Assembly: GCF_934229725.1 (NCBI RefSeq)
Contig: NZ_CAKQDX010000010.1
From: an uncultured Streptococcus sp.
GTDB lineage: Bacteria > Bacillota > Bacilli > Lactobacillales > Streptococcaceae
Length of the DNA: 64,000 nt
Reading direction: 5' to 3' (one strand)
The first letter of the stretch is position 1. Each line of letters opens with the position of its first letter. The translations under genes and the position numbers were made by a program. Under the pieces are notes generated by a model that was given only the letters and a program-made list of their open reading frames with translations, searched no databases and was not told the DNA's origin. This document shows, in pieces, positions 22,599-28,590 of the stretch.

Positions 22599-22853
22599 CT
22601 AATAATGATCTTTAAAAGATAGAAAGGCAACGTTTTTACCATCAACCATATAAATCAAACGATTTTCAGCATCAATTCGTCGAGACCAAGCTCCTTGAAA
22701 GTCATACTTCAAGGGTTCTGGCTTACCAATACCTGAAAAAGGATCCCGTTGAATGTCTTTAATCAGCTTATTAATTCGCTTAAGTGTCTTTCTATCCTGA
22801 TTTTGCCAATAGCAGTAATCTGTCCATGCGTCTTCAGTAAAAGTGGGTAACAT
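22599..22853 (-). CDS. yoeB: Type II toxin YoeB (Txe/YoeB mRNA interferase)
   Basis: 84 aa. ...AWTDYCYWQNQDRKTLKRINKLIKDIQRDPFSGIGKPEPLK...RRIDAENRLIY is characteristic of YoeB. Follows yefM by 4 nt. Confidence 0.9.
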   Translation of the reverse strand: MLPTFTEDAWTDYCYWQNQDRKTLKRINKLIKDIQRDPFSGIGKPEPLKYDFQGAWSRRIDAENRLIYMVDGKNVAFLSFKDHY

Positions 22854-22856
22854 TTT

Positions 22857-23111
22857 CTACTCCTTTAGTGCATGTTCCTGAATTTTCCCAGCACGCACCT
22901 GAGCCATTCCTCTTAAAACCTTGTCTGATAGTTCTTTATTTTGAACAATTCGCAATGTTTCTTGAATGCTATCCCATTCACTCTTTGAGACCACTACAAT
23001 ATCTTCATCAGGATTTTTATTAACTACAGTTAGAGGTTCAAATTCATCATTAACCTTTTTCATATAATCCTTCAAATGATTTCGAAACGTTGAATAGACG
23101 ACTGCTTCCAT
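22857..23111 (-). CDS. yefM: Type II antitoxin YefM (Phd/YefM family)
   Basis: MEAVVYSTFRNHLKDYMKKVNDEFEPLTVVNKNPDEDIVVVSKSEWDSIQETLRI is a typical YefM. Start at the second ATG (23111), which has a properly spaced GAGG. Confidence 0.9.
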   Translation of the reverse strand: MEAVVYSTFRNHLKDYMKKVNDEFEPLTVVNKNPDEDIVVVSKSEWDSIQETLRIVQNKELSDKVLRGMAQVRAGKIQEHALKE

Positions 23112-23252
23112 TAGCATACCTCATTTTCCTCTTTTCTTTTATTATATACCAAAAGGATAAACTTGTCAGGAACTTGTACAACTTTATTCTTTCTATTACA
23201 TTTATTCGAAAAAAGATTAAAAAAGCCTACCAGAGGTAGACCTTCTACAAAG

Positions 23253-24350: not shown

Positions 24351-25091
24351 TTACTTTTGGGCCACAAAGAACCAACGGGCACTAGTTTCAGTCGGTTCCT
24401 TATCCTCGAAATCAGCGTAGAGTTTAAAGGATTTGAAGCCAGCTTGCTCCAACAAGATATCATAAGTCAAAACCTCATAGGTACGCTCCTCATGGACCTC
24501 ATCATGGCGGCTAAAGCTTCCATCTTCCTCTTGGACAAAGAAGGTCAATTCATGGACGATAGAATGCGGTGCCGCATCCTCATAGGTATCCCAGAGCATA
24601 GCAAAATCCTCAGCATTTTCATGGTAAGAATAGCCAGGGAAAACCTCATCCGTCTGATAGGTTGAGTGCACATCGAAGATGAAGACGCCATCCTCATTGA
24701 GGGCATTGTAAACCTCCTTGAAGACGTCCCCGACCTCAACTTCGTCCTGCATATAGCAGATTGAATCTGAGTAGCAGGTCACAAAGTCATACTTGCCCGC
24801 TTGCGATAAATCCAACATATTGCCTTCAATAAAGTCGATTTTCTGCTTGGCAGAGGCTGCTCGCTTCTCCGCAATCTTCAACATATCATCACTCAAATCA
24901 AGTCCAGTCACATCGAATCCAGCTTGAGAAAAGCGTACAGACTGAATCCCAGTCCCACAAGCCAATTCAAGCAATTTCTTTTTGTCCTTAGTCTTTGGCA
25001 AATGACGGAGAGAAAAATCTGTCCACAAATCGTAAAGACTATCATCCATAACAGCGTCGTAGACCGCCGCAAAAGTTTCATAAGTAGCCAT
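24351..25091 (-). CDS. Class I SAM-dependent methyltransferase (YqeM-like)
   Basis: Motif I LELACGTGIQS. Last gene of the yqeG...rsfS-yqeM operon order. No Shine-Dalgarno upstream of its ATG. Confidence 0.8.
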   Translation of the reverse strand: MATYETFAAVYDAVMDDSLYDLWTDFSLRHLPKTKDKKKLLELACGTGIQSVRFSQAGFDVTGLDLSDDMLKIAEKRAASAKQKIDFIEGNMLDLSQAGKYDFVTCYSDSICYMQDEVEVGDVFKEVYNALNEDGVFIFDVHSTYQTDEVFPGYSYHENAEDFAMLWDTYEDAAPHSIVHELTFFVQEEDGSFSRHDEVHEERTYEVLTYDILLEQAGFKSFKLYADFEDKEPTETSARWFFVAQK

Positions 25092-25096
25092 AAATC

Positions 25097-25240
25097 AAGA
25101 TACAAAGAGCGTCAAAAGTACAGAGAAAATAGGAAAATTTCTGCCGTATCGCTAGATACAAAGAAAGTTTATCTTTTTCTCACAGCTTTTAGCTCGTGTT
25201 CAGTTGACAAATTAACTAAACACGAGGCCCTATCCTTTCT
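25097..25240. repeat. Copy 1 of a ~145-bp direct repeat in the rsfS-yqeM intergenic region
   Basis: AAGATACAAAGAGCGTCAAAAGTACAGAGAAAATAGGAAAATTTCTGCCGTATCGCTAGATACAAAGAAAGTTTATCTTTTTCTCACAGCTTTTAGCTCGTGTTCAGTTGACAAATTAACTAAACACGAGGCCCTATCCTTTCT. About 93% identical to copy 2. Confidence 0.8.
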
Positions 25241-25481
25241 ATTCTATAATGAGTCCGCCCGTAATCGGAAAGAAAATTAGGGGGAGTGAGACAGAACGAG
25301 TTTTCTTAAAAAAATCGTTCGTTGTCTCACCCCCGCAAGGCTGATTAGGTACTCTTCCGAGCTTAAAAAGCGAATGAAGAGTCCAATCAGCTACTGCGCC
25401 AAATAATAAATTTTAATATTGATAATTTGACATAGAACTATCTATTTTCCGACGATTACAGGACAGGTTCAAATCCTTTCT

Positions 25482-25626
25482 AAGATACAAAGAGCGTTAA
25501 AAGCACAGAGAAAATAGGAAAATTTCTGCCGTATCGCTAGATACAAAGAAAGTTTATCTTTTTCTCACAGCTTTTAGCTCGTGTTCATTTAACAAATTAA
25601 CAAAACACGAGTCCCTATCCTTTCTT
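25482..25626. repeat. Copy 2 of the ~145-bp direct repeat
   Basis: Same sequence with a few substitutions (GTTAAAAGCAC vs GTCAAAAGTAC; CATTTAACAAATTAACAAAAC vs CAGTTGACAAATTAACTAAAC). Preceded by a partial repeat end ...AATCCTTTCT. Confidence 0.8.
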
Positions 25627-25684
25627 TCCATGAGATTTTCAATTAAGCAACAAAACCCAGTTGTCGCCAACTGAGTTCATTGTC

Positions 25685-26035
25685 TTATGCCAAATAGGCT
25701 GACACATCCACCATTGGTGCTTCGTGCCAGAGTTTTTCAAGGTTATAGTGAGCACGCTCGTCTTCTGTAAAGATGTGAACAACGACGTCGTTAAGGTCCA
25801 AAAGAATCCATCCGCCCTTGTTGTCGCCTTCCATGTGACTAGCGTCCACACCAGCTGCTTTAACTTTCTCACGAATGTTGTCCGCAATAGCTTCCAACTG
25901 ACGGCTATTCATGGCACTCAAAATAACAAAGTAATCTGTTAAGCTTGTGAGACCATACAAATCAAGGGCAACAATGTCTTCAGCTCGCTTTTCATCAGCA
26001 GCTTTGACAACCACTTCAAGTAATTCTTCTTTCAT
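25685..26035 (-). CDS. rsfS: Ribosomal silencing factor RsfS (Iojap family)
   Basis: 116 aa. ...[39 protein letters not shown]... typical RsfS. Confidence 0.9.
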
Positions 26036-26049
26036 TTAATCCTCTTTCA

Positions 26050-26550
26050 TTAAAAAATCGTTTTGTAATCTAAGACATCTGCAAAACGTTCATCCCAAAT
26101 GTTCTCGTAAAATTCATTAATCGTTTCTGCTGGAATGCCGTCTTCATCAAAGGTTGTAACAGTACCTTCGGGAACGACTAGCTTGTAGCCGTGTTCGAAA
26201 GCAACTTTAACGGATGTATCAACACAATACTCCGTCTGCATACCGCATAAGACTAGTTTCTCAATTCCTTGTTGATCCAAGTATTCCTTTAATCCAGTCT
26301 CTTTAAACATGCTATTGTATCGCTTCTGAAAAACCTTTTCATCAGGCTGTCTCTTTAATAGTGGCGATAATTTCCAATCTTCCGAAGTTAGAGCCTCTTC
26401 CGTTTCTATATGCTGAATGTAGATAATTTCAATCTGCTGTTTTCTAACCTGATCTTGTAAATAAGAGATTTTCTCTAACAGCTTTTGTGTTTCAAAACCT
26501 GTTTCTACTAAGATATTTTGTACATCTATAATAATAAAAGCTGTTTTCAC
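26050..26550 (-). CDS. Isochorismatase-family cysteine hydrolase
   Basis: 166 aa. MKTAFIIIDVQN... and LVLCGMQTEYCVDTS (catalytic Cys) typical of the isochorismatase/YcaC family. Sits between yqeK and rsfS. Confidence 0.75.
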   Translation of the reverse strand: MKTAFIIIDVQNILVETGFETQKLLEKISYLQDQVRKQQIEIIYIQHIETEEALTSEDWKLSPLLKRQPDEKVFQKRYNSMFKETGLKEYLDQQGIEKLVLCGMQTEYCVDTSVKVAFEHGYKLVVPEGTVTTFDEDGIPAETINEFYENIWDERFADVLDYKTIF

Positions 26551-28165: not shown

Positions 28166-28590
28166 GTTTATTCCTTTTATTTTATTTGCTGTTTTTCTTG
28201 GGTGATACGGACGCTAGCAAACCACCGGTTTTATAGCTAATTTTTGAGCCTAAGGTCTCAAAAATTCCGAATTCAAGTAACATAAAATGTTACTTGGATT
28301 ACTATCACAACGAAAAACACATCGTTTGCTCATGACGTAAATCTAGGCAAACTTCATGTTCATTGAAAAGACTCTTTTTATACTTTTCTAAAACGGTGAC
28401 GGACATCATCGACCTCCTTACGGAGTTCCATGACTACAAATCGAGCCCTAGGTCTCAATTTTTCCTTGTCTAATTCTTCAACTATAGGAATGAGACTTTC
28501 ACTTCTACAAAAAGTATGGCCTAAAAGCTCGCAATGATTGCTTCTTTATCTAGCCTAGCCTTTCTTATACTTTTAATTACTTTATTAAGT

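Follow-up and report, generated by a model that had tools for sequence, protein, structure and literature searches.

The 593-bp spacer between rsfS and yqeM in an uncultured Streptococcus sp. (positions 25092-25684 of the 64,000-nt stretch of contig NZ_CAKQDX010000010.1 that was analyzed, called the window here) is very probably a modular, conserved, single-locus leader structured on its sense strand, with the R-X-R arrangement of its modules representing a derived allele. The genes around it all lie on the minus strand, in the order yqeG, yqeH, yhbY, nadD, yqeK, an isochorismatase-family gene, rsfS, and yqeM, so that the reverse complement, and not the plus strand, is the biologically relevant reading. 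In this direction a terminator-like hairpin (T) is followed by two kinds of module, R (a unit of ~135 nt) and X, each preceded by a copy of the Shine-Dalgarno (SD) motif AGAAAGGAT; the full order is T - SD - R - SD - X(long core) - SD - R - 7 nt - ATG. The source organism is, judging from a YqeM protein 97% identical to that of S. thermophilus, a member of the salivarius group.

Much of what was first described in this spacer stands with small corrections. It is structured and repeat-containing and has no transposase. The two R-containing direct repeats, originally put at ~145 bp and ~93% identity, measure 144 nt each (25097-25240 and 25482-25625), are 96% identical without gaps, and lie 385 bp apart, the two R copies differing at six positions; the 8-bp stem CTCGTGTT...AACACGAG described for each is present at 25193-25226 and 25578-25611. 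The near-perfect 20-bp-stem hairpin, which includes two bulges, occupies 25280-25334 rather than 25279-25330, and the second long hairpin (GCTGATTGG...CTAATCAGC) was found at 25340-25391. The plus-strand TATAAT lies one base from its original placement, at 25245-25250, and is the counterpart of a -10-like TAGAAT (25247-25242, minus strand) created by the junction between X and the following R.

R and X are conserved across salivarius- and mitis-group streptococci and restricted to a single locus. In the 64-kb window, no further copy of any part of the spacer was detected by blastn or by a covariance model run with filters off. An exact-pattern scan for the X left arm, covering one genome per species for 185,579 species, matched 62 genomes, including S. 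oralis, S. mitis, S. salivarius, and S. vestibularis, with a single copy in each, located in every case between rsfS and yqeM. When metagenomes were scanned with an R block, at least 120 contigs came back; among the matches listed, 114 of 120 were at the rsfS-yqeM locus, the other six being one contig edge, two phage-type sequences, and three chance matches that the R model rejects. Profile searches of 224 related-locus sequences (1.75 Mb) found neither R nor X away from this locus. Exact patterns for the R blocks, applied to IMG/VR and the metagenomes, identified, among the matches listed, the rsfS-yqeM locus and one phage site only, with no insertion sequence (IS); no R was found at additional phage sites, and X gave no match in phage genomes. 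A cognate IS with matching ends was likewise not found with the X left-arm pattern in the 185,579 species genomes, although exact patterns would miss a diverged IS end. Multiple dispersed copies per genome, as in MITEs (miniature inverted-repeat transposable elements), were found for neither R nor X in the window, the 62 genomes, the metagenome contigs, or the 1.75 Mb of related loci, and the ~100 or more interspersed copies per genome typical of BOX, RUP, and SPRITE repeats are likewise lacking in these single-locus elements. The first-pass annotation had named uniqueness of the unit in its genome and presence of the spacer in relatives as findings that would refute a dispersed repeat, and both were observed.

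Known RNA families do not account for the spacer either. The suggested check against Rfam gave no family at R or X in the window (at the gathering threshold), the S. oralis locus, or the phage locus. The single match in the 64-kb window at the gathering threshold is a tRNA elsewhere, and at E<=10 the spacer region yields only spurious miRNA-type hairpins. No published description of R or X was found in the literature searched. A tRNA or tRNA remnant serving as an attachment site, a candidate raised by the plus-strand sequence GGTTCAAATCC, was rejected, as ARAGORN finds none and the T-arm pairing is poor; GGTTCAAATCC belongs to the X left arm, which is conserved, and to the ancestral leader. 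A plasmid origin was also rejected, with no match.

Between the window and S. oralis, R is 81-87% identical, whereas in the neighboring yqeM the identity at 4-fold degenerate sites is only 34-45%, close to saturation (pS ~0.8); the X arms keep 93-100% identity around a freely diverging core. R and X are evidently ancient, syntenic, and under purifying selection, and a recent insertion of 590 bp is not supported. Recent horizontal transfer as the sole cause of the conservation was rejected because the synonymous and 4-fold sites of yqeM are near saturation and because divergence in X is seen in its core and not in its arms. As a separate observation on the flanking proteins, YqeM is 94-97% identical between the salivarius group and X-bearing S. 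oralis/mitis, whereas the neighboring RsfS is only ~74% identical; YqeM-type proteins labeled S. pneumoniae or S. cristatus are only 77% identical. Together with the near-saturated 4-fold sites, these values suggest either unusually strong constraint or an old gene exchange.

The RNA structure of the spacer is strongly supported by comparison. Folding of a 621-nt region gives -202 kcal/mol, against -141 +/- 6 kcal/mol for shuffled sequences (z = -9.9). In an alignment of 34 chromosomal and 5 phage copies of R, the core forms a 26-bp interrupted hairpin with 96.7% of cells paired, compared with 51-64% in slid controls; 11 of the 26 pairs show changes on both sides, and none of 500 shuffles attains any of the observed measures. 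Because most of these double changes fall between the phage clade and chromosomal R, the number of independent events behind them is small. The covariance model scores R copy B, proximal to rsfS, at 133 bits and R copy A, proximal to yqeM, at 129 bits. In the helix formed by the X arms, measured in copies ascertained through R and not through X, compensation includes alternation of GC with CG (10 versus 9 sequences) and of CG with UA, together with U-G/U-A pairs. Many positions in both R and X alternate between Watson-Crick and G-U pairs, and as these G-U pairs are possible on the operon strand only, the selected structure would be an RNA transcribed in the direction of the genes. The best-conserved parts of R include unpaired blocks. 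An antisense small peptide in X (SD AGGAG-N7-ATG, MEPSSKEGYLFSDDYRTGSNPF, in core type a of S. oralis) was rejected, as other core types and the window have a stop or no start. A tiny upstream open reading frame (ORF) in R (GTG-TTT-AGT-TAA) varies in length, 3 versus 7 codons.

How such a leader diversifies is illustrated by its alleles. Contigs with identical RsfS carry spacers of 204-208 bp (T-R), 446 bp (T-R-X), or 589-593 bp (T-R-X-R), and the S. thermophilus spacer is T-R-X with a short X that has the same arms and, in place of the 157-nt long core, an apical hairpin of ~33 nt. T itself, whose hairpin proper spans 25678-25653 on the minus strand, is kept in all salivarius- and mitis-group spacers. 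Classification of 162 spacers by architecture, with counts biased by the way the loci were ascertained, gives 88 R-X, 31 R only, 15 R-Xlong, 10 X only, and 6 R-Xlong-R, the type of the window; R-Xshort-R, R-Xlong-miniR-Xshort (L206), and a 974-bp R-X-R-X-R with three R, two X, and a 385-bp period (L120) are represented by one spacer each. The rest are module-free or unclassified, and five of the unclassified are salivarius-group spacers of 164-166 bp. An apex-deleted "mini-R" was recognized, from the R model and the sequences, in three inspected spacers of this last kind and in the 170-bp spacer of L099. Four mitis-group sequences (L022, L028, L076, and L220) have an extra module of ~110 nt (TCTTTTCCTTTATCTTTTATTACGGCGTTAACTC...GCCTAGTACTAAAAGCAAACG...) between the rsfS stop and T that some other genomes lack, a further modular variation 5' of T.

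R and X have apparently been reshuffled by recombination into R, X, R-X, R-X-R, and R-X-R-X-R alleles. R-only alleles bear hybrid tails, e.g. GTATCATGATT, which are the expected product of recombination between the similar tails of R (CTTTGTATCTT) and X (CTTGGTATCAT). The R-Xlong-R allele of the window is a minority allele, a tandem expansion with the 385-bp period. Its X right arm is truncated, the usual TTGGTATCAT tail being replaced, and the X-to-R junction CATTATAGAAT that follows is also present in L001, L006, L009, L120, L192, and L206, with a diverged form in L100 and L157. The occurrence of the same junction in R-X-R arrays of two diverged lineages indicates that R-X-R is an established allele class and not a private accident of the window strain, and R copy A with its upstream junction belongs to the R subtype found next to yqeM in other R-X-R arrays. 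The likeliest origin of R-X-R is an illegitimate join between an X right arm and the sequence 5' of an R-yqeM allele, or a tandem duplication followed by a tail-tail deletion; the array would later have spread and been amplified further through unequal crossing-over, as in L120. The tandem arrangement is the sole derived feature of the window spacer.

The anatomy of R is that of a mobile-type element. Base blocks GAGCTAAAAGCTGTGAGAAAA and TTTTCTCTGTGCTTTTAACGCTC of R pair together, giving the terminal inverted repeats and base-paired structure of a MITE, as do the X arms, CCGTCC(T)GTAATCG and CGATTACGGGCGG, with each other; R has inverted-repeat arms of ~22 nt and a variable apex. Chromosomal R is flanked by the 9-bp AGAAAGGAT as a direct repeat, and X-only alleles have a single copy, resembling empty sites; R copy A in the window is without such a flanking duplication. 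BLAST of the spacer against phage genomes identified a related 110-nt stretch, 70-73% identical to R, that is carried by 11 Javan prophages from S. agalactiae and S. canis, and an IMG/VR scan added 12 further phages. The phage element lies in sense orientation, 3' of the stop codon that ends the frameshifted tail-chaperone ORF (gpGT) and 5' of the tape-measure SD, retains both conserved R blocks (CTGAACACGRGCTAAAAGCTG and CTTTTGACGCYCTTTGTATCTTGAT), and differs in its hairpin apex, with compensation. Sister phages Javan95, 32, 424, and 113 (91-97% identical) have the empty site, ...AATTTCTAGTAGGGAGGAGGAGTGACGATG, whereas in occupied phages ...TTTTTGATAGGAA precedes the element and GATGGAAGGAGGAGTGACGATG follows it; flanking the insertion is GAT(A)GGAA, which looks like a duplicated 8-bp target of SD-like sequence. 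From these properties R looks like a small palindromic insertion element, and the case ties a cis-element of the chromosome to an insertion within late operons of prophages. Because of GGA-TAG 5' of R and the identical AGAAAGGAT 3' of it, translational bypassing and intron-like excision were considered, and were set aside as speculative: the region is not within an ORF, and no splicing machinery is known for elements of this type. At the exact site that the R-like element occupies in Javan93-type phages, the pneumococcal phage IPP17 (L217) and the S. oralis phage PH10 (L218) carry an unrelated hairpin of ~95 nt with a T-run, which suggests that the gpGT/tape-measure junction repeatedly gains structured inserts.

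On this evidence R and X might be regarded simply as selfish, MITE-like palindromic elements situated in the SD region of yqeM and, for R, of the phage gene, tolerated but functionless, with R-X-R produced neutrally by unequal recombination. Besides the arms, variable apex, and 9-bp flanking repeat, the insertion/empty-site polymorphism in phages and the commonness of presence/absence, mini-R, and copy-number variants fit this description; the sharing of MITEs between hosts and phages is documented in other taxa (PMC11602168), and PMC3049150 defines MITEs by terminal inverted repeats, target-site duplications, and folded structure. A functionless element is nevertheless unlikely in view of its single copy per genome at one syntenic locus in two species groups, the lack of a related IS or any other copy with the arm pattern in the species genomes scanned, and the conservation of R while neighboring 4-fold sites approach saturation. 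Neither structure alone nor neutrality explains why unpaired blocks are the best conserved in R. The constant spacing of 6-7 nt to the ATG, seen in 159 of 159 spacers, is a further point against it. Of the original classification as a MITE- or BOX/RUP-type repeat, the MITE-type anatomy is retained, with its arms, 9-bp flank, and prophage relative, whereas BOX/RUP-type dispersal is not. R and X resemble MITEs and small palindromic repeats such as Correia/NEMIS, ERIC, BOX, RUP, and SPRITE in being AT-rich, 100-240 nt long, and strongly base-paired as RNA, with inverted-repeat arms, a variable or modular interior, short flanking direct repeats, and presumed cotranscription with neighboring genes; the empty-site polymorphism of the phage relative is MITE-like, and the modular copy number recalls boxB. 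They differ from these elements in occupying a single locus per genome, where the others have tens to hundreds of copies, in synteny across species groups under purifying selection with no cognate IS found, and in their conserved unpaired blocks, single orientation, and fixed distance to the start codon. Overall, we rate R and X as what appears to be a palindromic insertion element exapted as a cis-acting leader, by a mechanism that is hypothetical.

A clue to this mechanism comes from streptococci without modules, in which rsfS-yqeM spacers of 51-170 bp show the order terminator-AGAAAGGA-6-8 nt-ATG (...TTTTTTCAAGAAAGGAAATATAATG in L220 and ...TTTTTGAAAGGAAAAGTATG in S. cristatus, with S. hongkongensis and S. 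infantarius similar). The AGAAAGGAT before every module is the same motif as the SD of these species and is complementary to the 3' end of 16S rRNA. Before X the motif is invariant in 21 of 21 unbiased copies, one G excepted. The order in module-free species indicates that the modules sit between the ancestral yqeM SD and the ATG. The yqeM ATG of the window (25091-25089, minus strand) is preceded by TTTGTATCTTGATTT and, as first reported, has no adjacent SD, the SD being separated from it. This absence had been attributed to the insert and taken as consistent with loss of translational coupling between genes that usually abut. Neither reading holds: the trait is common to all alleles that bear R or X, single-module ones included, and a terminator-like hairpin lies between rsfS and yqeM in every streptococcus examined, so that coupling was never present.

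The spacing 3' of the modules is fixed. From the ...ATC of the last module to the ATG there are 6 nt in 121 spacers and 7 nt in 38, accounting for all 159 module-bearing spacers, and the linker varies in sequence (ATGAAT, ATGATT, ATCATT, TTAATT, TTGATTT, and others). The closing helix of X predicted by RNAalifold, GAUUUGA/UUGGUAUC, begins right after AGAAAG. In R, the closing helix P1 (AGGGC/GCUCU) follows AGAAAG in the same way and is paired in 57-59 of 59 cases, with a possible 3-bp GAU/AUC helix (P0) besides. With the hairpin looped out, the unpaired distance from SD to AUG equals the 6-8 nt of module-free species.

This geometry suggests how a structured insert could be accommodated within a ribosome-binding site (RBS). 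R and X modules would have inserted between the ancestral SD of yqeM and its start codon, and would have been retained because the closed hairpin has an SD copy on its 5' side, while exactly 6-7 nt stay unpaired between its 3' side and the ATG. Looping out of the hairpin would then restore a working "split" RBS, and folding of the hairpin, or binding of a factor to its conserved base, may adjust how well yqeM is translated and/or how stable its mRNA is. Such a factor, or a folding switch that modulates the structure, is suggested by the unpaired blocks conserved at the base of the hairpin. In the window allele, yqeM translation would depend on SD copy 3 (25240-25232) and on the folding of R copy A, while transcripts reading through from upstream would run into the terminator-like hairpin of the long core (25334-25269), which may also attenuate read-through or end a small nested transcript. 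Split RBSs bridged by a hairpin are known from genes 38 and 25 of phage T4, where, as here, a stable stem-loop parts SD and start codon and the nucleotides left unpaired after folding sum to a normal spacing. The streptococcal hairpins differ from those of T4 in size (110-240 nt versus about 20 nt) and in being modular and duplicated, with a mechanism suggested by geometry only. We consider the split RBS the best single explanation of the SD copy, the tail, and the fixed spacing, and as a mechanism in its own right it is offered tentatively, as a possibility less likely than not. For the leader statement as a whole, combining the modular structured leader with the presumed split-RBS mechanism, the case for and the case against come closer to balance, with a slight tilt toward doubt.

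A number of observations weigh against this mechanism and the history of insertion that it assumes. Beside the SD, the closing helices are invariant and either short or rich in G-U pairs, with no covariation support, and P0 has only 3 bp, in a register that shifts between lineages. In R-only alleles, the geometry without the 3-bp GAU/AUC helix leaves ~15 nt from SD to ATG. In minimum-free-energy folds the SD itself can pair with the tail, an arrangement expected to repress initiation and not to enable it. Terminator-like hairpins in the X core, very strong in the window, could stop transcription 45-190 nt before yqeM, requiring a downstream promoter that the split-RBS model does not supply, and a -10 element in the tail predicts the same fixed spacing. 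The phage element lies 5' of a normal SD, so bridging is needless there. Finally, the flanking direct repeats could stem from microhomology deletion instead of target-site duplication.

The possibility of a downstream promoter has its own merits. The module tails, TTGGTATCAT (TGnTATCAT) in X and TATCTT in R, might act as -10 elements for a leaderless or near-leaderless yqeM mRNA, with the hairpins serving as terminators or insulators from the rsfS operon. TGnTAnnnT lies immediately 5' of the ATG in 112 of the 162 spacers, the tail is conserved though it is outside the main stems, and a TATAAT variant (L046/L049) improves the -10 element; yqeM without an adjacent SD and terminator-like T and X cores that would make a downstream promoter necessary are in keeping with the same idea. 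The register tells against it. Transcription normally starts ~7 nt downstream of the -10 hexamer, and a leaderless mRNA would have its start codon ~6-7 nt after it; the hexamer is throughout separated from the A of the ATG by no more than 4 nt (in 121 spacers) or 5 nt (in 38), which would put a usual start at the G of the ATG or beyond. In the tails of R there is no TG in the right register, there is no -35 element, and no conserved -35/-10 pair was found between T and R. A TATCAC variant persists though it breaks the invariant last T, and promoter function leaves the conserved AGAAAGGAT before every module and the compensatory changes in the arms unexplained. Promoters in the module tails are accordingly regarded as quite improbable.

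The hairpins might instead act at the level of RNA processing or stability, as RNase III or RNase Y targets or as 5' stabilizers (SD-like sequence plus hairpin) that uncouple yqeM from rsfS and the phage tape-measure gene from the chaperone genes, or they might give rise to small RNAs from the 3' untranslated or intergenic region. Both R and X are long imperfect duplexes of 26 or more bp on the sense strand, an SD-like AGAAAGGAT or GATAGGAA precedes each module in chromosome and phage, and in both settings the element lies between genes of one transcription unit. STAB-SD, an SD-like sequence of Bacillus thuringiensis cry3A, is a 5' mRNA stabilizer that acts at a processed 5' end. The R/X leader is similar to it in having a purine tract complementary to the 3' end of 16S rRNA, no start codon at SD distance, and a structured leader, and unlike it in not being known to be processed or to have a stabilizing effect. 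ERIC and Correia elements are reported to be targets of RNase E or RNase III (PMC3049150). The long core of X is pertinent to a small RNA in particular. It consists of an AT-rich stretch, hairpin 1 (25391-25340), and the 20-bp GC-rich hairpin (25334-25280), and is conserved between two arm lineages. The 20-bp GC-rich hairpin has the form of an intrinsic terminator on the minus strand, with a GC-rich stem GGGGGTGAGACAACGAACGA...TCGTTCTGTCTCACTCCCCC followed by the U tract TAATTTTCTTT; the terminator scan tool passed over it on account of a loop longer than 8 nt. T, the short X cores, and above all this hairpin resemble intrinsic terminators or attenuators, whereas the X arms and R go far past the extent of a terminator, show sequence conservation, and lie 3' of the SD. 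With its AT-rich stretch, conserved hairpin, and strong hairpin/U-tract terminator, the long core is a candidate nested small RNA gene. Inspection of the sequence 5' of the core revealed no convincing promoter, no Rfam small RNA or leader family matches, and processing or a small RNA alone would leave the 6-7-nt constraint to the ATG unexplained, which together make this account, too, an unlikely one.

A broader generalization of the split RBS is doubtful at present: R and X could represent an undescribed class of "RBS-splitting" hairpins that insert into SD regions and duplicate the SD, are exchangeable between prophage and chromosome, and when fixed gate translation as cis riboregulators, with tandem amplification such as R-X-R changing yqeM output. 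In such a scheme SD and start codon would be brought side by side by the folded hairpin only, leaving translation under the control of folding or of a bound factor. More immediately, R and X are two uncatalogued RNA elements with no Rfam family and with strong comparative evidence for structure, strand, and selection. Their position between SD and start codon is very unusual, and among the species that carry them are commensals abundant in humans and a starter organism of the dairy industry (S. salivarius, S. oralis/mitis, and S. thermophilus). The locus provides a case of a mobile-type palindromic element tolerated or exapted inside an RBS, and its allelic series (R, X, R-X, R-X-R, R-X-R-X-R, mini-R, and short and long X cores) could serve to dissect the mechanism. 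It is also a length-polymorphic marker and a trap for annotation, where yqeM is called with N-terminal extensions and the spacer may be mistaken for a dispersed repeat. In S. thermophilus, yqeM (P0003 / L011-L016) is annotated as a 289-residue product starting 129 nt upstream, within the R/X leader; cross-species alignment puts its real start at the conserved MATYETF.

Table 1. Features of the rsfS-yqeM spacer and its flanking genes in the window, in order of transcription
Feature	Position	Strand	Basis
rsfS (ribosomal silencing factor) coding sequence, upstream gene	25685..26035	-	ORF, translation; Pfam RsfS on identical product in L001-L010
Module T, terminator-like hairpin GAACTCAGTTGGCGACAACTGGGTT and U-rich tail, directly 3' of rsfS stop	25643..25678	-	Terminator scan
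SD copy 1 (AGAAAGGAT), 5' flank of R copy B	25617..25625	-	Sequence
R copy B, rsfS-proximal: short hairpin H1 and long hairpin H2, conserved base blocks, ...CTCTTTGTATCTT tail	25482..25616	-	Direct repeat D1
SD copy 2 (AGAAAGGAT), 5' flank of X	25473..25481	-	Sequence
X left arm (TTGAACCTGTCCTGTAATCGTCGGAAAATAGATAG)	25438..25472	-	Exact-pattern scan; pairs with right arm, compensatory changes
X long core cassette	25281..25437	-	Comparison of X variants
X right arm (CTAATTTTCTTTCCGATTACGGGCGGACT)	25252..25280	-	Alignments
X-to-R junction CATTATAGAAT, 11 nt, R-X-R arrays only	25241..25251	-	Comparison of loci
SD copy 3 (AGAAAGGAT), 5' flank of R copy A	25232..25240	-	Sequence
R copy A, yqeM-proximal	25097..25231	-	Direct repeat D1, covariance model
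GATTT linker; with TT of R tail, 7 nt from ...ATC to ATG	25092..25096	-	Spacing survey
yqeM-like class I S-adenosylmethionine-dependent methyltransferase coding sequence, downstream gene	24351..25091	-	ORF, translation, homologues, Pfam

Other variable features occur in the vicinity of this locus. The yqeH-yhbY spacer (28166-28590, minus strand) is a second oversized and length-polymorphic spacer, with lengths of 430 bp (window), 255 bp (L008), and 32 bp (S. hongkongensis). Within it lies a palindrome, TTTGAGACCTTAGGCTCAAAA (28242-28262), that is found elsewhere in some mitis-group genomes (L080, L081, and others), between the rsfS stop and the terminator, and that looks like a genuinely dispersed small palindromic repeat. 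The isochorismatase-family gene between yqeK and rsfS (26050-26550, minus strand) is present in several other streptococci and missing in S. thermophilus L011-L016. A yefM/yoeB-type antitoxin/toxin pair (22599-23117, minus strand), 3' of a HIGH-nucleotidyltransferase gene, is variable among contigs with identical RsfS, being absent from L003, L004, and L007.

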